NCBI GenBank assembly: GCA_963718915.1
Contig: CAVRAI010000003.1
Coordinates: 510,001-542,000, forward strand
DNA from: an uncultured Chloroflexia bacterium
GTDB lineage: Bacteria > Chloroflexota > Ktedonobacteria > Ktedonobacterales > JADMIN01
Direction: 5' to 3'
DNA length: 32,000 nucleotides
Shown: one piece after another, positions 661-26,648 of the stretch
Layout of the letters: the number at the start of each line of letters is the position of its first letter
Numbering within the stretch: position 1 is the first letter of the stretch
The notes under the pieces: generated by a model
What the model saw: the letters and a program-made list of their open reading frames with translations, nothing else
Database searches by the model: none
What the model was told of the DNA's origin: nothing
Translations under genes and position numbers: made by a program

Positions 661-876
661 CCACGCCTGGTGGTAGCGTTCTGGCAACGGAGGTCGCACA
701 GCGGTTGAGGCGGTCGCACGGAGGCGTGGAGGCGTGGAGGCGTGATTCATCCCTGGGCAGCCACGTCCTCCCGCCGCCACCGAGCCGGAACTTCGGATGT
801 CGTACTCGGATGTCGTACATAGAATGCTGAAGACTTGTAATGCTGGAATGCTTGTGACCGCAAGAGGAGAAAACGT

Positions 877-2583
877 TTGAGATCCGAGCCAGCACCGTCG
901 GGAGGAAGCGCGGGACCAGTACGCCTGCCATCGTGGGCCTATGCCGCTGTGACGGTGGCCTCGCTGCTGATTGGCGTTACGGCGGTGGTTCGCGGGACGA
1001 GCGCCATTGTGGTTGCCGAGGATAGTGACCTTACGAACTTCTTCTTCAAATCCGCGAACTACATCCTTCAGGGCGAGCCCTGGCAAATCTATGCCGCGCG
1101 TGGCAGTGGTCTCACCTCAACCTATCCCAACTTTAACCCGCCACTGAGCATGTTCCTGATCGCGCCGCTGCTCTCGCTCGCCCATGCGCTCCATGCGGTC
1201 AGCTATGGCGCGCAGATAACGGTTGTCTCGCTCCCCTTCGTCGTACTGGTACCGCTGCTGGCCTATATCACCGCGCGTGTCCTTCGCTGGCTCTACCCGG
1301 AAATCCCCGAGACACAGCTATTCTTGGCATATATGCTCATCGCGCTCTCGCCGCTGGCGTGGCAATCGCTGACACCGTGGTACCATCTGGAACAGCCGTT
1401 GATGCTCTGCCTGCTGGTGCTGGCGATTGCATCTCTACAGGGGCGGCGTGAGGGACTGGCTGGTCTGCTGGCGGGGCTGGCGTTCCTGACACGCACGACG
1501 GCGCTGATGCCGCTGGTCGCGCTGGGGGTATTATTGCTGGTGGCGCGCGAGTGGCGCGGACTCTTACGCTTCGGTGGTGTTGCCGCGACGGTGAGTTTTG
1601 TCGGCCTGCTGCCATTCTTTCTCTTCGATCCGCATGACACCCTCTATTCGCTCGTCAGCTGGCGCGGTAGCTCGCAGATTGGTGGCAACTCCATCTGGAG
1701 CATCTTCGCCTATTCAGGCGACGACAGCTCAATTCGCTACCTAATCAACGGGGTCGCCGAGCGGCTCGATATGTATAGTGTGCTGCTGTTCATTGTTATT
1801 GTGGCGTTCGTGGCGGCGCGACGGCGTGGCATCTCCGCCTATGGAACGGATGCCTGGGCGGTGGTCGCGATTGCCTGCCTCGCGACGCCGATGCTCTCCA
1901 AGACGGTCTGGCCGTACTATTATCTGGAACCATTTGTGCCGCTGCTGATCTGGGAATACGCGACGATGTACAACCGGCGTGGCGGTGTCTGGCGCTGGCC
2001 GGTCCTCTCGATTGGCTTCCTCTGTGTCGCCGCGACCCTTTCGCAATTCATCGGTCTGCGTAGCGTCGGCTACCTCGACCGTGTCAGTGTGGGACTGCTG
2101 GGGTTCGGCGCGATGCTGGCCTTCGCGTACTTCATCTGGATGCGACTGGGCGCGCGCAAACTCGATGCATCCGCCGCGGCAGGCAGTGAGCCAGCCCGCA
2201 AGCAGTGGCGCCTTGGGCAGGGGAGTCTGTTCGAGCCAACCGCCGCGCCCGTCTCGCCCGTCTCGCCCGTCTCGCCAGCATCCATCGCTCCGCAGCCCAC
2301 GCCAGGTGGATCAGCGTATGCGCCGCCAATGGTTGCGCCCGCGAACCCGATTCCACCGATCCCGCCAGCGCAGCGCGCGCCAGCGCCAGCGCCAAAGCCC
2401 CAGCAGCAACCGCCATCGCCATCGCAATCGCAATCGCCCCAGCAATCGCCCCAGCAGCAACGTCCGCCCGCGGCGCCGCTCTGGCCGCCTGATCCGGTGG
2501 AGCGGCCAACGCCGTCGGCCAATGGTGGAGAAGGCGCCTGGCCTGATCTGTGGGCCGATGACAAGCGCCCACCTAGGCAGTAA
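877..2583 (+). CDS. polytopic membrane protein, GT-C fold glycosyltransferase-like (DUF2029/GT87-like), with a ~130 aa Pro/Gln/Ser-rich C-terminal tail
   Basis: TTG start at 877 preceded by AAGAGGAGA (863-871). More than 10 hydrophobic segments. Early loop motif DLTNFFFKSANYILQGEPWQIY resembles the D..Y...G..pY loop of GT87/DUF2029 mannosyltransferases (from memory, not searched). The tail contains in-frame 6-12 bp repeats. Confidence 0.6.
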   Translation: MRSEPAPSGGSAGPVRLPSWAYAAVTVASLLIGVTAVVRGTSAIVVAEDSDLTNFFFKSANYILQGEPWQIYAARGSGLTSTYPNFNPPLSMFLIAPLLSLAHALHAVSYGAQITVVSLPFVVLVPLLAYITARVLRWLYPEIPETQLFLAYMLIALSPLAWQSLTPWYHLEQPLMLCLLVLAIASLQGRREGLAGLLAGLAFLTRTTALMPLVALGVLLLVAREWRGLLRFGGVAATVSFVGLLPFFLFDPHDTLYSLVSWRGSSQIGGNSIWSIFAYSGDDSSIRYLINGVAERLDMYSVLLFIVIVAFVAARRRGISAYGTDAWAVVAIACLATPMLSKTVWPYYYLEPFVPLLIWEYATMYNRRGGVWRWPVLSIGFLCVAATLSQFIGLRSVGYLDRVSVGLLGFGAMLAFAYFIWMRLGARKLDASAAAGSEPARKQWRLGQGSLFEPTAAPVSPVSPVSPASIAPQPTPGGSAYAPPMVAPANPIPPIPPAQRAPAPAPKPQQQPPSPSQSQSPQQSPQQQRPPAAPLWPPDPVERPTPSANGGEGAWPDLWADDKRPPRQ

Positions 2584-2626
2584 CCCAGGCAGTAACCGCG
2601 ATGCGCGCGGCGGAGGTGAAGGCAGC

Positions 2627-4908: not shown

Positions 4909-9973
<5,065 letters not shown>

Positions 9974-10236: not shown

Positions 10237-11913
10237 ATGACCGACAAAACATATCACGGTGATACGCTGGATTCCGAGGATGCTGGAGCCACACAACCTC
10301 CCCGCCGACAGACGGATGAGGTCGTCGTGACCGACGACCTCAGCCTGCTCATGGCTGCGCTGCCTCCACGTGTGCGTGTGGCCATTGAGGAGCGTGGCGT
10401 CGACCAACTGCTCGAAGTCGTGCTCGACCTGGGACGCCTCCCTGAGGCGCGCTACCCTCACGCGGCGTATGATCTCGGCGCCGACCCCGTCACAGCTGAA
10501 GACATCGCCTATGTCGTCAAGCGCGTTGGGCAGTTTGGAGGAGACAACCGGGCAGGGATCGAACGGACACTGCACCGCATCAGCGCCATCCGCAACCGCC
10601 GCGGCGAGGTCATCGGCCTCACCTGCCGCGTCGGGCGCGCCGTCCGCGGCACCGTCGCCTTGATTCGCGATGTCATCGAGCAGGGCCAATCCCTGCTCAT
10701 CCTGGGGCGACCCGGCGTCGGCAAGACGACGCTGCTGCGAGAGGCGGCGCGGGTCTTGGCCGATGAGCTGGGCAAGCGGGTGGTGGTGGTGGACACCTCC
10801 AACGAGATCGCGGGCGACGGCGACATTCCGCATCCCGGCATTGGGCGCGCGCGGCGGATGCAGGTGACGCGGCCGGCGGAGCAGCATCAGGTGATGATCG
10901 AGGCGGTGGAGAACCACATGCCGGAGGTGATCATCATCGACGAGATTGGGACGGAGCTGGAGGCGGCGGCGGCGCGCACGATTGCCGAGCGGGGGGTGCA
11001 GTTGGTGGGGACGGCGCATGGGCGGACGCTGGACAACCTGGTGGTGAACCCGACGCTCGCCGACCTGGTGGGGGGGACGCAGACGGTGACGCTGGGGGAT
11101 GAGGAGGCGCGGCGGCGGGGGACGCAGAAGACGGTGGTCGAGCGCAAAGCCCCACCCACCTTCGATGTCCTCGTCGAGCAGGAGGAGCGCAATCTGGTGG
11201 GCGTTCACCGCGATGTGGCCACTGCGGTCGATGACATCCTGCGCGGGGAATCGCCCCAGCGTGAGATGCGCGAGCGTCTGCCCGATGGCTCACTGCGCAC
11301 CTGGACGGAACATGCGCCACGCGCCGCACGTAATGACGCGGTGGGGCTTCCCCTGCGTGAGGCGCCGATGGCGCGCGAAGATGTCGGCGCCCGGAGGCGG
11401 CCACGTGGCCCCTTGGCGGGTGTCGCCCCACGCGCGCCCTGGTGGGAAGAGCGCCAGGATCGCGGCGCGCGCGCGGGCCAGCCACAGGAAGACAATGAGG
11501 ATGTGGCGACGGCCGAGGATGGTTCTGGTTGGCTCGATCCCGAACTGGCGCGCTCGGCGGCGCTTTTCCACGATGGAACGAGCGGCGTGCCTTTGGTGAC
11601 GCCTGATCCGGCGATATTCCGCAAGCGGCGCATCTATCCCTTCGGCGTCAGCCGTGTCCGGCTGGAGCAGGCGATCCGCGAGATGGGCCTGCCCGCGGTC
11701 ATCAGCCGCAGCGAGCAGGAGGCCGACGCGCTGCTAGTGCTGAAGAACATGTATCGCAAGCAGCCCGACCGCATCGACGCTGCCCAGCAGGCGGGCGTTC
11801 CCGTCTATATGCTGCGTTCGGCGGGACTGGATCGCATCCGCGAGGCGCTGCTCGACCTCTTCGGGCCAGATCTGGCGCGCGCCCGGGCAACGGTTCGTCC
11901 GCCAGAGGCGTAG
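10237..11913 (+). CDS. Ycf45/SpoIIIAA-like AAA ATPase with an R3H-type C-terminal region
   Basis: 558 aa. Walker A GRPGVGKTT and Walker B VIIIDEIG. N-terminal LLEVVLDLGRLPEARY and TCRVGRAV blocks are typical of SpoIIIAA/Ycf45 family ATPases. The C-terminal RIYPFGVSRVRLEQAI block recalls cyanobacterial Ycf45 (from memory). Confidence 0.75.
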   Translation: MTDKTYHGDTLDSEDAGATQPPRRQTDEVVVTDDLSLLMAALPPRVRVAIEERGVDQLLEVVLDLGRLPEARYPHAAYDLGADPVTAEDIAYVVKRVGQFGGDNRAGIERTLHRISAIRNRRGEVIGLTCRVGRAVRGTVALIRDVIEQGQSLLILGRPGVGKTTLLREAARVLADELGKRVVVVDTSNEIAGDGDIPHPGIGRARRMQVTRPAEQHQVMIEAVENHMPEVIIIDEIGTELEAAAARTIAERGVQLVGTAHGRTLDNLVVNPTLADLVGGTQTVTLGDEEARRRGTQKTVVERKAPPTFDVLVEQEERNLVGVHRDVATAVDDILRGESPQREMRERLPDGSLRTWTEHAPRAARNDAVGLPLREAPMAREDVGARRRPRGPLAGVAPRAPWWEERQDRGARAGQPQEDNEDVATAEDGSGWLDPELARSAALFHDGTSGVPLVTPDPAIFRKRRIYPFGVSRVRLEQAIREMGLPAVISRSEQEADALLVLKNMYRKQPDRIDAAQQAGVPVYMLRSAGLDRIREALLDLFGPDLARARATVRPPEA

Positions 11914-11972: not shown

Positions 11973-12028
11973 GGCGCGGTTTTAACCGCCCGCGCTCCCC
12001 AGCCTGTCTCCGTCGCACATGCTAAAAC
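11973..12028. repeat. family-A REP-like module, copy 1
   Basis: GGCGCGGTTTTAACCGCC hairpin core plus CGCGCTCCCCAGCCTGTCTCCGTCGCACATGCTAAAAC; 54/56 identical to 13668-13723. Confidence 0.8.
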
Positions 12029-12029
12029 C

Positions 12030-13141
12030 ACGTGAGTTCGGGATAAGCGAAATGCCTTCAACAGAGATATGATGCGGTTTACGACACCCCGTCAGTCCCT
12101 GAATGGAGGCATGTCATGAGTATACTCGACCTGGACGCCTTGTACTGCTCCGTGGATGCGTTCTGGCAGGTCTTTGAGCCGTGGTGGGAGCGCGAGTTGC
12201 TCGTCTCGGGGACGCGCCGTCGTCGACGCGCGACCCGGCTGCATCCCAGTGAAATTATGACCATCGCGATCCTCTTGCAGCAGTCGGGCTACCGCACCTT
12301 CAAAGCGTTCTATACAAAGCGTTCTATACTGAGTATGTGCAGGTGCATCTGCGCCGGGAGTTTCCGCACCTCGTGAGCTACAATCGCTGCATCGAATCGC
12401 TGCATCGAATTGCTGCATCGAATTGCTGCCGCGAGTCCTCCTTCCGCTCGCCGTCTACCTGCGCACGCAATGTGGAACCTGCACCGGTGTCAGCTTCGTG
12501 TCAGCTTCATTGACTCGACGGCCCTCGCGGTCTGTCACCCGGCGCGCATCCACCAGCATCGGGTCTTTCGCGTGGATGCCCGGCGGGGCAAGACCTCGGT
12601 GGGCTGGTTCTTCGGCTTCAAACTGCATCTGGTGGTCAACGACCGCGGCGAACTGCTGGCGTTTTGTCTTCCCCCCGGCAACGTCGATGACCGTCAGCCT
12701 GTGCCACGCTTGGTGCGTGGCACGCATCGCCTCTTCGGCCGCCTCTTCGGTCGCCTCTTCGGCCGCCTCTTCGCCGACAAAGGCTACCAAAGGCTACATC
12801 TCGGCGGCGCTCGCTGAGCAGCGCTCGCTGAGCAGCTCTCGCTGGCTCTTGCTCACTCAGCGCCTGCGCCTCATTACCAAACTGCGCAAAAATATGCGCC
12901 ATGTGCTCATGCCCCTGGCCGACAAACTCCTGCTCCGCAAACGGGCGATCATTGAGAGCATCAACGACCAACTCAAGAACATCTGCCAGATTGAGCATAC
13001 CCGCCACCGCAGCCCGCTCAACTTCCTCGTCCATCTCTTCGCCGGATTGGTCGCCTACTGCCGCCAACCCAAGAAACCCTCCCTCGTCCAAGAGCACGAG
13101 ATGCCCGTTCATGTTACCCTGTAGTTATCCCGAACTCACGT
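12030..13141 (+). mobile_element. IS982-family insertion sequence (inactive copy)
   Basis: Perfect 17-bp terminal inverted repeats ACGTGAGTTCGGGATAA (12030-12046) and TTATCCCGAACTCACGT (13125-13141) enclose a single transposase gene. Confidence 0.85.
12116..13124 (+). pseudogene. IS982-family DDE transposase, disrupted by multiple short tandem duplications
   Basis: Pieces lie in three frames (ORFs 12116..12376, 12410..12817, 12423..13124). Family hallmarks present: [98 protein letters not shown]. Confidence 0.85.
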
Positions 13142-13266
13142 TAAAATATATCGTTGAGGGGGCGCTACAATCGCCAGATGGCAGGAATCCGCAGGTGCGC
13201 TCGGTGTGGATGATTGACGGCGGAAGAAGCTCTCCACGGCTGATCTCCGCCTACGCGCTCGACTAA
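13141..13266 (+). pseudogene. 3' fragment of a DUF6883-like gene, truncated at the IS982 right end
   Basis: LKYIVEGALQSPDGRNPQVRSVWMIDGGRSSPRLISAYALD* resembles the conserved C-terminus of DUF6883 proteins (..P.GR...V.tVW.i......PRl.tAYP, from memory). The reading frame begins exactly at the IS boundary and there is no N-terminal part left of the IS. Confidence 0.45.
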
Positions 13267-13298
13267 TGCGATCTGATCGGGGTGAAAGGGAAACCGCA

Positions 13299-13547
13299 AT
13301 GATTCAGGAATTTGACCCAGTGGTCTTTACAGTGGATTTGCCGCAGTATGGCCTGCTGGCCGGTGACGTGGGTACGATCGCGGATATTCACCCATCGGGC
13401 AAAGCGTATGAGGTGGAAGTCTTCCTGGCGGATGGTTCGACGTATGATGTCGTCACCGTTCAGGAGGGCCAGATTCGCCCAGCGACCAAGAACGATGTGA
13501 CGCATGCGCGCGCCATCACGCCAGCAAAAGCGACCACACAGAGTTAG
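13299..13547 (+). CDS. DUF4926 domain protein
   Basis: MIQEFDPVVFTVDLPQYGLLAGDVGTIADIHPSGKAYEVEVFLADGSTYDVVTV matches the DUF4926 pattern (D.V.L..DLP..GL..G..GTIV......YEVEF.d..G.T). ATG 13299 follows AAAGGGA. Confidence 0.65.
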   Translation: MIQEFDPVVFTVDLPQYGLLAGDVGTIADIHPSGKAYEVEVFLADGSTYDVVTVQEGQIRPATKNDVTHARAITPAKATTQS

Positions 13548-13723
13548 CGACGCCGAAGGGCGCCAGCTCTGCAACCCATGCAGGGCAGCTACGCAAACCG
13601 AGCAGCGCCAGGCGCTCACGCTCTGCTCCGAACCCGCGCGGCGGGTTTCGTGGCCGTAGGCCATTCAGGCGCGGTTTTAACCGCCCGCGCTCCCTAGCCC
13701 GTCTCCGTCGCACATGCTAAAAC
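13548..13723. repeat. family-A REP-like composite, copy 2
   Basis: Hairpins CTGCAACCCATGCAG, AACCCGCGCGGCGGGTT, GTGGCCGTAGGCCAT and GGCGCGGTTTTAACCGCC (13668-13685), plus the 38-bp tail shared with copy 1. Lies between convergent genes. Confidence 0.75.
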
Positions 13724-13775
13724 GACATGAACTGCCCGCGCTCCTCCACCCGCATCACCATCCACCCGCGCCATC

Positions 13776-15740: not shown

Positions 15741-15895
15741 CCATCCTCTCCTTCGGAGATGCTCATCCTGCCAAAGTGCTATGCAGTCTGTCTATGGCTG
15801 TATGTGGCGCGATGAAACGGCTAGAGCATGCTTGCCCATGGTACCAGATTATGCGCAGCGTGTCACCATATGTGGCGCCATACAGGGCGTCATAC

Positions 15896-16105
15896 AGTCT
15901 TTTGGGCCAGATCGCGGGCGGTTAAAACCGCGCCTCTTTGGCCTCTCTTTGGCCTCGCTGACGCTCCGCCACGAAACCCGCCTGCGCGGGTTGCAGAGAC
16001 GTACCCCAACGGCGCATATCGTTGGAATACGGTCTGGAAAGTCCGCGACGGCGGACTTCGTGGCCGCAGGCCATTGAGGCGCGGTTTTAACCGCCAGCCG
16101 CGTGT
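15896..16105. mobile_element. MITE-like family-A element with 20-bp inverted repeats, flanked by a 25-bp direct repeat
   Basis: GGCGGTTAAAACCGCGCCTC (15917-15936) is inverted relative to GAGGCGCGGTTTTAACCGCC (16076-16095). Internal modules are shared with 13548-13685. The flanks TGTGGCGCCATACAGGGCGTCATAC at 15871-15895 and 16106-16130 are identical. Confidence 0.6.
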
Positions 16106-16306
16106 TGTGGCGCCATACAGGGCGTCATACCACTGCTTCTACAGGTACAAACGGAGCAGACGCCAGAATGGACTGCGCAATTTCGCCGAGTGACGAGATA
16201 CCGCTCTGCGCGTAGAGTACTATAGGCAGCTTTGTAGGTAACTTTAGGCCGAAAATTGCTATAACTGCCCACTGCGCCACACTCATCATGCGGAAAGGCA
16301 TCGTTC

Positions 16307-18208: not shown

Positions 18209-18233
18209 GTCGTCGTTGTATTGGGGCTAGCGC

Positions 18234-18467
18234 ACCGTGGCCTTCATGCCACGGCGAATGGGTACGGAAATTCGCTGCGGCATGATGTAGTTTCACTTTG
18301 TATTCTGAAACACCGCGCGTTGTAGTGGGCGAGGCAGGCCGTAGCGTGAACGCTACGGCGAATGGAGGAGTGATTTGGAGGGGGAAATTCGCCGGGGCAT
18401 TTATGCTCCGGCACGCCCACCCCAGCACGCTGTTCGGAGGTCATTCTTAAATGCCATCATGCCGCAG
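18234..18467. repeat. family-B REP/BIME-like palindromic cluster, copy 1
   Basis: Units CCGTGGCcttcatGCCACGGCGAAT, GCCGTAGCGtgaaCGCTACGGCGAAT and GAAATTCGCCGGGGCATttATGCTCCGG. Outer inverted repeat CTGCGGCATGATG (18273-18285) / CATCATGCCGCAG (18455-18467). The core 18309-18421 is homologous to 26404-26530. Confidence 0.8.
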
Positions 18468-25164: not shown

Positions 25165-25182
25165 CCGCGCTCCGTCAGGCCG

Positions 25183-26121
25183 TCAGGGCTTGCAGGCCCA
25201 TTCCCGCCAGCTATTGCCGTCGCGGTGGAAGATTTCGTAGGCGGCATGGATGTTCTTGTCGTAGTCGAACGGCGAATAGGCGGCATAGGATGTCGTATTC
25301 CAGGTGCTTGGGTAGAGAATCTGGAAGACCCCTGAGGCGTGGCTGTTGCCAATGGGATACGAATTGACGGCGTTGGGATCGTAGCCAGACTCACACCGGG
25401 CGATATTGAGCGCCCCCGCCGCGTATTGCCCGAAGACGGCGTTGATCTCGTTGATGATGACCTGCTGGCCAGGGTTGGCGCCTTTGACCGGCCCGGTATA
25501 GCTGGGCTTCGGTTTCGGCGTGGCCGTCGGGGTTGGCACGAAGAGGAACCCGCCCGCGGATGTGGCGAACTGGCCACTGGTGGCCGCCGCCATGCTCTGG
25601 CCGAGCGGCGTGGTGGCAGCAAGCGTGCTGGCCAACGCGACCGTTGCGATCAGTGCGACGAGAAACTGCATCAGGAATGAGCGCGGCCCGTTGCGCCGGG
25701 GAACCACCCTGGCCGCCGGGCGAGGCGGTCTGGCCGCGCCGCGAATCAGCAGCGCGGTTGACTCGTGATTGCCGACGGCAGGCGCCAGCGTGCGGTGGGC
25801 CGCGACCGGGGCGAGCGCCATCGACCGCACCTCCGCGTCGGCTGAGCGTATCTCGTCTTCCAGCCCCGGCAGCGTCTGCGGACGTATCGGCATGGTGGGT
25901 CGGGCGGCGCGGCGCATCGGTGGGCGTGTGAGCCGGGGGGACTGTGCTGGCGAGCCGGTCGGTGGGCGCGCTGCTGTGACCGTCGGCGCATCATCCAGCG
26001 CATGCGCGTCGGATAGTGGCGGCAGCGGCGGCAGATCAGACGCGGGCGATGACGCGACGGTTGGCGTCTCATCAGGCGAGCTATCGTTCTGCTGGGGGAA
26101 GTGAGGCTCCTGCGGGTGCAT
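25183..26121 (-). CDS. membrane-anchored lytic transglycosylase (SLT/GH23-like domain) with a Pro-rich N-terminal region
   Basis: AAGGAGGAG lies 5 nt before ATG 26121; the longer ORF to 26490 runs into the repeat cluster. TM helix FLMQFLVALIATVALASTLAA. C-terminal CESGYDPNAVN...ASGVFQILYPSTW matches the ES..(n)P.A.S..GA.GLMQ SLT signature. Confidence 0.65.
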   Translation of the reverse strand: MHPQEPHFPQQNDSSPDETPTVASSPASDLPPLPPLSDAHALDDAPTVTAARPPTGSPAQSPRLTRPPMRRAARPTMPIRPQTLPGLEDEIRSADAEVRSMALAPVAAHRTLAPAVGNHESTALLIRGAARPPRPAARVVPRRNGPRSFLMQFLVALIATVALASTLAATTPLGQSMAAATSGQFATSAGGFLFVPTPTATPKPKPSYTGPVKGANPGQQVIINEINAVFGQYAAGALNIARCESGYDPNAVNSYPIGNSHASGVFQILYPSTWNTTSYAAYSPFDYDKNIHAAYEIFHRDGNSWREWACKP

Positions 26122-26341: not shown

Positions 26342-26648
26342 GGGTTGTTGGTGGTTTCGAGGGCAGGCAAGTCGTAGCGTATTGTCGTTTTCGCATGTGC
26401 GACGGACACGCGCGTTGCGGTGGGGTGAGCAAGCCGTAGCGTGAACGCTACGGCGAATAGGCCTGGGAGGTGGGAAATTCGCCGTAGCATTTATGCTACG
26501 GTCTGCCTCGCCCGCCACAACGCGCGGTGTTCGGCGTACATAGTAAAACGACAATACGCTACAGCGAGTGGGTGGACGAGGCTGCGGCCGAGGAAATTCG
26601 CCGTGGCCTTCAGGCTACGGTGGGCGCCTGAACCACAACAACTCACCC
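26342..26648. repeat. family-B REP/BIME-like cluster, copy 2: ~307 bp nested imperfect palindrome
   Basis: Concentric inverted repeats 26342-26361/26628-26648, 26371-26394/26543-26565 and 26407-26440/26495-26529, around the core GCCGTAGCGtgaaCGCTACGGCGAAT...GAAATTCGCCGTAGCATttATGCTACGG. An extra unit GAAATTCGCCGTGGCcttcagGCTACGG lies at 26593-26620. Confidence 0.8.

Follow-up and report, generated by a model that had tools for sequence, protein, structure and literature searches.

A recently inactivated IS982 insertion sequence with eight short tandem duplications in its transposase gene

The locus and its neighbourhood

The window analysed here, a stretch of 32,000 nt from an uncultured Chloroflexia bacterium, contains an insertion sequence of the IS982 family that is 1112 bp long as found and 1003 bp long without its duplications (Table 1). 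A complete rRNA operon lies ~2 kb 5′ of the element on the same strand; for 5S, no match attained the gathering score. In the three relatives examined, the ATPase gene is directly beside the beta-lactamase-like gene and the insertion is absent, so that the element, the small DUF4926 gene that follows it and two intergenic repeats make up a lineage-specific insertion of ~1.9 kb. The DUF4926 gene, which is missing at the same position in the three relatives, thus arrived in the same inserted block. The two intergenic repeats, 94% identical over 63 nt, flank the insertion sequence together with this gene and have further copies in the window, which also holds a MITE-like element and a second, hairpin-forming intergenic repeat family.

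The terminal inverted repeats of the insertion sequence are perfect, as the initial sequence-only reading of this DNA had stated, and 17 bp long. They begin with ACGTGAG, the same end sequence is found in related IS982 copies, and the 17-mer of the left end was located just 5′ of the transposase match in 7 of 80 loci examined. According to ISfinder, IS982 elements have inverted repeats of 18–35 bp that start with AC. The target-site duplications of the family are short (3–9 bp). Like the rest of the family, the element has one DDE transposase ORF of ~300 aa, a length of ~1 kb and inverted repeats starting with AC. Unlike intact members, it has a transposase gene that is broken in seven places, and its candidate target duplication is imperfect, matching at only 5 of 7 positions (TAAAACC at 12023–12029, TAAAATA at 13142–13148). 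At two loci with related copies (L162 and L172), the flanks compared by eye suggest clean target duplications of 6–7 bp. The element is thus a member of IS982 by descent, non-autonomous and dead; with both ends intact, it could at most be moved by a related transposase supplied in trans.

Table 1. Positions of the features discussed in the text (window coordinates; TRF, Tandem Repeats Finder).
Feature	Position	Strand	Remarks
Perfect duplication, 8 × 3.1	720–744		Intergenic, 216-bp region 5′ of GT87-like membrane protein gene
Perfect duplication, 13 × 2.0	793–818		Intergenic, same 216-bp region
Low-complexity linker of GT87-like protein	2246–2456		Proline-, serine-, glutamine-rich; in-frame 6-, 9-, 12- and 18-bp repeats
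Duplication, 12 × 2.2	2571–2597		Straddles stop codon; copies the gene's last codons and stop
rRNA operon, complete	4909–9973	+	16S 4909–6447; 23S 6757–9973
Repeated intergenic element, copy (GGCGCGGTTTTAACCGCC...GCTAAAAC)	11973–12029	+	Ends at left boundary of insertion sequence
Other copies of this family (GGCGCGGTTTTAACCGCC ... GTCTCCGTCGCACATGCTAAAAC)	13639–13730; 15910–15944; 16049–16098; 26383–26413		15910–15944 and 26383–26413 reverse
IS982-family insertion sequence, dead but complete	12030–13141	+	Perfect inverted repeats; alignable with related copies from one end to the other
Left terminal inverted repeat ACGTGAGTTCGGGATAA	12030–12046	+	Right end matches 17/17
Broken transposase reading frame	12116–13124	+	Deleting 109 bp restores 299 codons
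E1: CAAAGCGTTCTATA × 2, +14 bp	12301–12328	+	1 bp junction microhomology; frameshift; TRF 12301–12329, 14 × 2.1, 100%
E2 and E3: three 13-bp units, +26 bp	12384–12422	+	Native reading NRCIELL; TRF 12382–12429, 13 × 3.7
E4: GTGTCAGCTTC × 2, +11 bp	12487–12508	+	No microhomology; TRF 12487–12508, 11 × 2.0
Catalytic codons D, D, E	12512–12514; 12776–12778; 12954–12956	+	D116, D196, E244 of repaired protein
In-frame +9 bp (GTH) relative to most relatives	12719–12727	+	Natural polymorphic site of family; not counted as lesion
E5: 24-bp unit × 2, +24 bp, in frame	12727–12774	+	Spans native RLFGRLFG motif; no microhomology; TRF 12727–12773, 24 × 2.0, alternatively 12 × 3.8
E6: CAAAGGCTAC × 2, +10 bp	12778–12797	+	No microhomology; splits ADKGY catalytic motif; TRF 12778–12797, 10 × 2.0
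E7: GCGCTCGCTGAGCA × 2, +14 bp	12807–12834	+	2 bp microhomology; TRF 12807–12844, 14 × 2.7
E8: extra 10 bp GCTCTCGCTG, +10 bp	12835–12854	+	Hybrid of two flanking native motifs; microhomology not scored
In-frame +6 bp (EH) relative to relatives	13092–13097	+	Maybe an older 6-bp duplication (CAAGAG/CACGAG); not inactivating
Right terminal inverted repeat	13125–13141	−	Adjoins TAG stop (13122–13124) directly
DUF4926 gene	13266–13547		Immediately 3′ of insertion sequence
Direct repeat TGTGGCGCCATACAGGGCGTCATAC, perfect, 25 nt	15871–15895; 16106–16130		Flanks the MITE-like element
MITE-like element, 210 bp	15896–16105		31-nt inverted ends (GCGGGCGGTTAAAACCGCGCC...)
Duplication, 11 × 2	15934–15956		Inside the MITE-like element
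Second intergenic repeat family (GCCGTAGCGTGAACGCTACGGCGAAT and partner)	18210–18430; 26374–26625		Hairpin-forming; direct and inverted copies 8 kb apart
Duplication, 8 × 2	25172–25187		Straddles stop codon; copies the gene's last codons and stop

Repair of the reading frame

The sequence-only reading had proposed that the transposase was inactivated only by tandem duplications and that deleting 109 bp would restore it. Cutting out one copy per array, or two in the case of the 13-mer, together with the 10 bp added at 12835–12844 removed 14+26+11+24+10+14+10 = 109 bp and left a 900-nt ORF that runs from the ATG at 12116 to the TAG at 13124 and encodes 299 aa with no internal stop. The repaired ORF scored 239.1 bits (E=5e-71, cut-off 130) against the NCBIfam IS982 model (NF033520) and matched Pfam DDE_Tnp_1_3 at E=2e-68, which agrees with the family assignment made at first sight. 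The three proposed DDE residues occupy positions that do not vary when the protein is aligned with 13 or with 59 intact relatives. Among the matches listed from 5.8 billion protein clusters, the best relatives are intact proteins of 291–299 aa with 80–90% identity, and the few named ones are Ktedonobacterales IS982 transposases. The repaired protein aligns with the intact relatives over its full length, the sole length differences being the in-frame GTH and EH.

A nucleotide alignment with five related copies placed window-specific insertions of +14, +26, +11, +34 (24+10) and +24 (14+10) bp exactly at the repeats, and no window-specific deletion was seen inside the ORF. The lesions in the element thus comprise 8 insertions, 0 deletions and 0 stop-creating substitutions, and the frame-breakers are all tandem duplications, as claimed. 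The frame is broken by E1–E4 and by E6–E8, E5 being in frame. The earlier picture of an N-terminal and a C-terminal piece lying one frame apart could be refined, since the frame of 12116 is regained after the fourth event and the catalytic middle of the protein is read in the N-terminal frame. Reversible on/off cycling by compensating frameshifts was considered (the sums 14+13, 13+11 and 10+14 regain the frame) and rejected, in part because the pattern is statistically ordinary and in part because a stop at 12374–12376 is met in the shifted frame after E1, ahead of the next duplication. With this stop inside the first shifted stretch, the gene is truly dead.

Anatomy of the duplications

All of the repeats first described by inspection were recovered in place by Tandem Repeats Finder and by an exact-repeat scan, the two being concordant on all six arrays in the element. 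Their number, eight, holds; the sizes given at first (10–14 bp) do not, the range being 10–24 bp. The array that had been described as four units of 12 bp, cgcctcttcgg(c/t), does add 24 bp in total but is better read as a single 24-bp duplication (E5) whose unit has as its first base the T of the CAT codon just before the array; a later G-to-C substitution at 12774 makes the conserved Gly195 read Ala (G195A). Similarly, the last event (E8) does add 10 bp, not as a clean copy but as a hybrid unit, and it sits within the strongest local hairpin of the element. The later substitution in E5 and the imperfection of E8 suggest more than one event in time. The eight events are confined to the central 554 bp (12301–12854), where they form two clusters; the outer ~270 bp at each end are free of them.

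Short tandem duplications with or without junction microhomology (MTD/NMTD) are a described class of mutation (PMC8639346; preprint 10.64898/2026.02.28.708716), and microhomology of at least 1 bp is expected by chance at 25% of junctions (preprint 10.64898/2026.02.28.708716). For the seven simple events of the element, E1 to E7, it amounts to 1, 3, 5, 0, 0, 0 and 2 bp, i.e., at least 1 bp in 4/7 and none in 3/7; the 13-bp slips E2 and E3 both draw on homology native to the sequence, AAT (3 bp) and GCTGC (5 bp) respectively. The events resemble the MTD/NMTD class in going from one to two copies, head to tail, with units of at least 8 bp, and in a microhomology mix (4/7 against 3/7) similar to that of the reference genomes. 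The difference lies in their distribution: MTD/NMTD are scattered single events that often revert (PMC8639346; 10.64898/2026.02.28.708716), whereas here eight are fixed within 554 bp with no other lesion type. The element itself is an ordinary member of the family; what sets it apart is the way it decayed, an unusual variant within a known mutation class.

The junctions were also searched for traces of an enzyme. Taken at any fixed distance from the borders of the duplications, no k-mer was more frequent than at random positions, and a sequence-specific nuclease was rejected in the absence of a shared border motif beyond that frequency; the CAAAG with which both E1 and E6 begin is at most a faint hint. 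Hairpin-driven slippage was likewise rejected, unusually stable single-strand structure being found only at the second cluster (E5–E8). A less specific version of the enzymatic idea would have repeated staggered double-strand breaks, the 5′ overhangs being filled in and the ends joined, with each duplication as long as its overhang; the agent could be a defence or guide-directed nuclease, or the aborted strand transfer of another transposase. Such a mechanism would call for Ku/LigD and for an enzyme that leaves 5′ overhangs of 10–14 nt. It would account for the three or four junctions without microhomology, which are poorly explained by replicative slippage, for sizes of 10–14 bp, close to one helical turn, and for duplications as the only lesion type. 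It is nevertheless very improbable given the random-level border motifs, the 6–7 bp rather than 10–14 bp target duplications that the close relatives seem (by eye) to make, and the lack of a second, guide-supplying copy among the top protein-cluster matches.

The same sites in intact relatives

If intact paralogs carried the same repeats natively, the duplications would be ancestral features of the protein. A pattern search covering two of the sites in the 120 closest intact proteins gave no extra copies apart from in-frame variants where the family has natural hot spots, of which there are two: 2 proteins (P0037 and P0091) have a third (K/R)LFG unit, and 6 have 3 aa inserted ahead of RLFG. 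As a further in-frame duplication at the hot spots, PRLTRLARRLFG occurs in five proteins. At the other five sites, no insertions were present in 13 fully aligned intact proteins or in five related DNA copies. The RLFG motif, where E5 lies, is thus a natural hot spot of in-frame expansion, and since in-frame duplications arise at the same hot spots in relatives, part of the pattern is intrinsic to the sequence. A soil-metagenome IS982 copy (L149) has a perfect in-frame array of 12 bp × 4.2 at its ITNLR motif (1872–1921); its frame is broken elsewhere too, two tblastn segments switching frame near 1862–1864.

Recency of the inactivation

The repaired ORF gives dN/dS values of 0.08–0.16 against intact copies, the same range as intact copies among themselves. 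At otherwise invariant columns, the repaired protein has 6 private amino-acid changes and the intact copies 6–7. Of the 192 columns that are at least 90% conserved among 60 aligned sequences, 4 differ in the repaired protein and a mean of 3.2 (sd 2.0) in living copies. No period of relaxed constraint is detectable by any of these measures, and conservation equal to that of intact copies indicates a recent inactivation. By a rough arithmetic of our own, less than ~1% of the sites have changed since then, yet eight duplications were fixed.

The element also appears to be solitary. No intact protein with more than 90% identity was found among the top matches from the 5.8 billion clusters, which include the proteins of the source assembly, and among the matches listed in genome and metagenome scans relatives appear only at 84% identity or less. 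RIP-like repeat-targeted mutagenesis, which calls for several copies in one genome and a bias towards transitions, was set aside, as neither a paralog above 90% identity among those top matches nor an excess of substitutions was seen.

Density of duplications in the element and beyond it

Among 178 other IS982 elements, 177 kb in all, just 4 contain perfect tandem duplications with units of at least 8 bp, or ~0.023 per kb. This element has 6–8 of them in 1.1 kb, a density ~300 times as high (Poisson P ~4e-13). A second measure, the number of Tandem Repeats Finder arrays with a period of 10, 11, 13 or 14, gave 0.78 per 10 kb in 1.5 Mb of assorted loci, 0.97 per 10 kb in the window outside the element and 45 per 10 kb within it. 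The excess over other IS982 copies is accompanied by a one-sidedness of the lesions. Mira, Ochman and Moran are said to have described in 2001 a deletional bias in the decay of bacterial pseudogenes, which are expected to decay chiefly via deletions and point mutations. If insertions made up 30% of indels, 8 insertions and 0 deletions would have a probability of 0.3^8 = 7e-5. The gene is like an ordinary decaying pseudogene in being non-functional and gathering neutral lesions, but differs in its 8 insertions against 0 deletions, in having no nonsense substitution and in showing no detectable relaxation of constraint. The view that the mutational signature is unusual was thus borne out, and literature searches yielded no account of a pseudogene inactivated through several tandem duplications.

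Duplications of the same kind occur elsewhere in the window (Table 1), with sizes and microhomologies at its other neutral sites that match those in the element. For their density the gene boundaries of the window were set manually, and an ORF-based coding mask was dropped as a baseline, because at 62% GC spurious ORFs cover intergenic DNA and make such a mask too crude; ORF-free DNA from 1.3 Mb gave a baseline of 0.24 duplications per kb. The non-coding DNA of the window has ~4 perfect duplications in ~4.2 kb, compared with a single one in the 10.4 kb of non-coding DNA among 39 kb from three related genomes (L173–L175; P ~0.03). With that single duplication in the relatives, a lineage-wide proneness to duplication was rejected. 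As judged from 32 kb only, the genome itself appears duplication-rich and deletion-poor in its short indels. Most tandem-repeat rows at the start of the window have another source, the low-complexity linker of the GT87-like protein.

Selection on these duplications can be read from their lengths. In coding DNA of the window, the units of perfect duplications are multiples of 3 in 4/4 cases, and at neutral sites (the dead element, intergenic DNA, the repeat element and positions just past stop codons) in 0/10 (Fisher P=0.001), i.e., duplications in genes have passed a selection filter. Two of the neutral duplications straddle stop codons, so that the first stop is kept and the extra copy lies just beyond it.

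The same contrast bears on whether the duplications are an artefact of assembly or polishing in a long contig and absent from the organism, which the sequence-only reading had allowed for. An assembler would not produce a contrast that respects reading frames, which makes an artefact less likely than it first seemed. Furthermore, 0 of the 10 ORFs scanned against Pfam are frameshifted, both rRNA genes are full-length matches to their models, no close paralog (above 90% identity) that could confuse a polisher was seen among the top protein-cluster matches, and several units are hybrids of native near-repeats, as in real slippage. The source contig was seen in one assembly only, and the 26-mer at the E1 junction was not found in metagenome contigs or in any independent assembly, as an artefact would have it. 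On balance, an artefact is highly unlikely and the duplications look like real mutations.

Origin of the duplications

The explanation preferred here, if tentatively, is that the genome is rich in duplications and that the element, being solitary, dead and neutral, recorded independent ones of the template-switch or flap type. Some eight short tandem duplications, independent of one another, would have destroyed the transposase gene, each arising when a growing DNA strand re-primed 10–24 nt upstream, by template switching, flap misprocessing or end filling. Some of the switches may have been aided by 1–5 bp of microhomology or by native near-repeats, others having occurred without homology. 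The first duplication would have killed the gene and made the element neutral, whereupon further events could be recorded, and selection would have purged frameshifting duplications from the neighbouring genes. Duplications would then outnumber every other lesion because the short-indel spectrum of the genome appears rich in duplications and poor in deletions.

Several observations count against this explanation: the clustering in the centre of the element, which has a probability of ~1% under uniform placement (by our own arithmetic); a density of duplications ~6 times that of the other non-coding DNA of the window (P=0.0016 for at least 6 at 1.1 per kb); the absence of deletions and point lesions; and the three related genomes, which show no excess and in one of which (L173) a non-mobile short-chain dehydrogenase pseudogene has decayed in the usual manner, its sole lesions being a 1-nt frameshift and a stop. 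At that locus of L173, a TnpB pseudogene of the IS605 type is frameshifted by a near-perfect 11-nt tandem duplication (11815–11836, minus strand), the removal of which rejoins the frames, a second break being a 1-nt shift. The contrast, a single case, is suggestive, and is cited in favour of a different idea, namely that microduplication actively kills transposons by a process restricted to the element or the strain, rather than recording passive decay. This could take the form of error-prone synthesis coupled to transposition, yielding copies dead on arrival, or of nuclease attack with fill-in joining. Such killing is distinctly unlikely.

The main rival is one bout of error-prone DNA synthesis, limited to the element and linked to its transposition, during which a poorly processive polymerase would have switched template backward by 10–24 nt repeatedly in one tract. 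This could have been gap repair where the element had left its donor site, or DNA replication in a copy-out transposition, and the copy would have been dead on arrival. It would fit the same clustering and sixfold density, the confinement of the lesions to the element with both ends left intact, the backward slips only (8 insertions/0 deletions), the 100% identity that most duplicate copies still have and the lack of any apparent time under relaxed constraint. The insertion is, moreover, missing at the same site in three relatives, hence a lineage-specific arrival. Such an episode is nonetheless rather unlikely. The transposition chemistry of IS982 is uncharacterised, accidents of this kind would have to be rare with perfect internal duplications in only 4/178 other copies, comparable duplications lie outside the element in the same window, and E5 and E8 look somewhat older than the rest.

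Two known systems offer partial parallels. Abortive gap repair, which such an episode would resemble, creates defective Ac/Ds and P elements in eukaryotes, and there, as here, the damage is limited to the interior of the transposon; it is ascribed to slippage in repair synthesis. Those elements are eukaryotic and mainly show internal deletions with filler DNA, whereas the present case is bacterial and consists of duplications. Bacterial Pol I 5′-nuclease mutants have a duplication mutator phenotype from defective flap processing, and the spectra of these and of yeast rad27 mutants involve longer flanking repeats than those found here. The element is like such flap-processing mutators (yeast rad27 deletion, bacterial Pol I 5′-nuclease mutants) in a spectrum dominated by short duplications. 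In yeast, deletion of rad27 raises the frequency of short tandem duplications (preprint 10.64898/2026.02.28.708716).

Significance

A gene hit eight times by one rare type of lesion, and by no other, preserves a natural record of the mutational process behind it, which is a distinctive one. Were the bias to extend over the genome, replication or repair would seem to be in an unusual state in this little-studied Chloroflexota lineage, with flap processing, single-strand exonucleases and end joining as candidates, and the case would illustrate the way in which short tandem repeats first arise. Were the process instead peculiar to the element, there would be a new way for transposons to be born dead or to be silenced.
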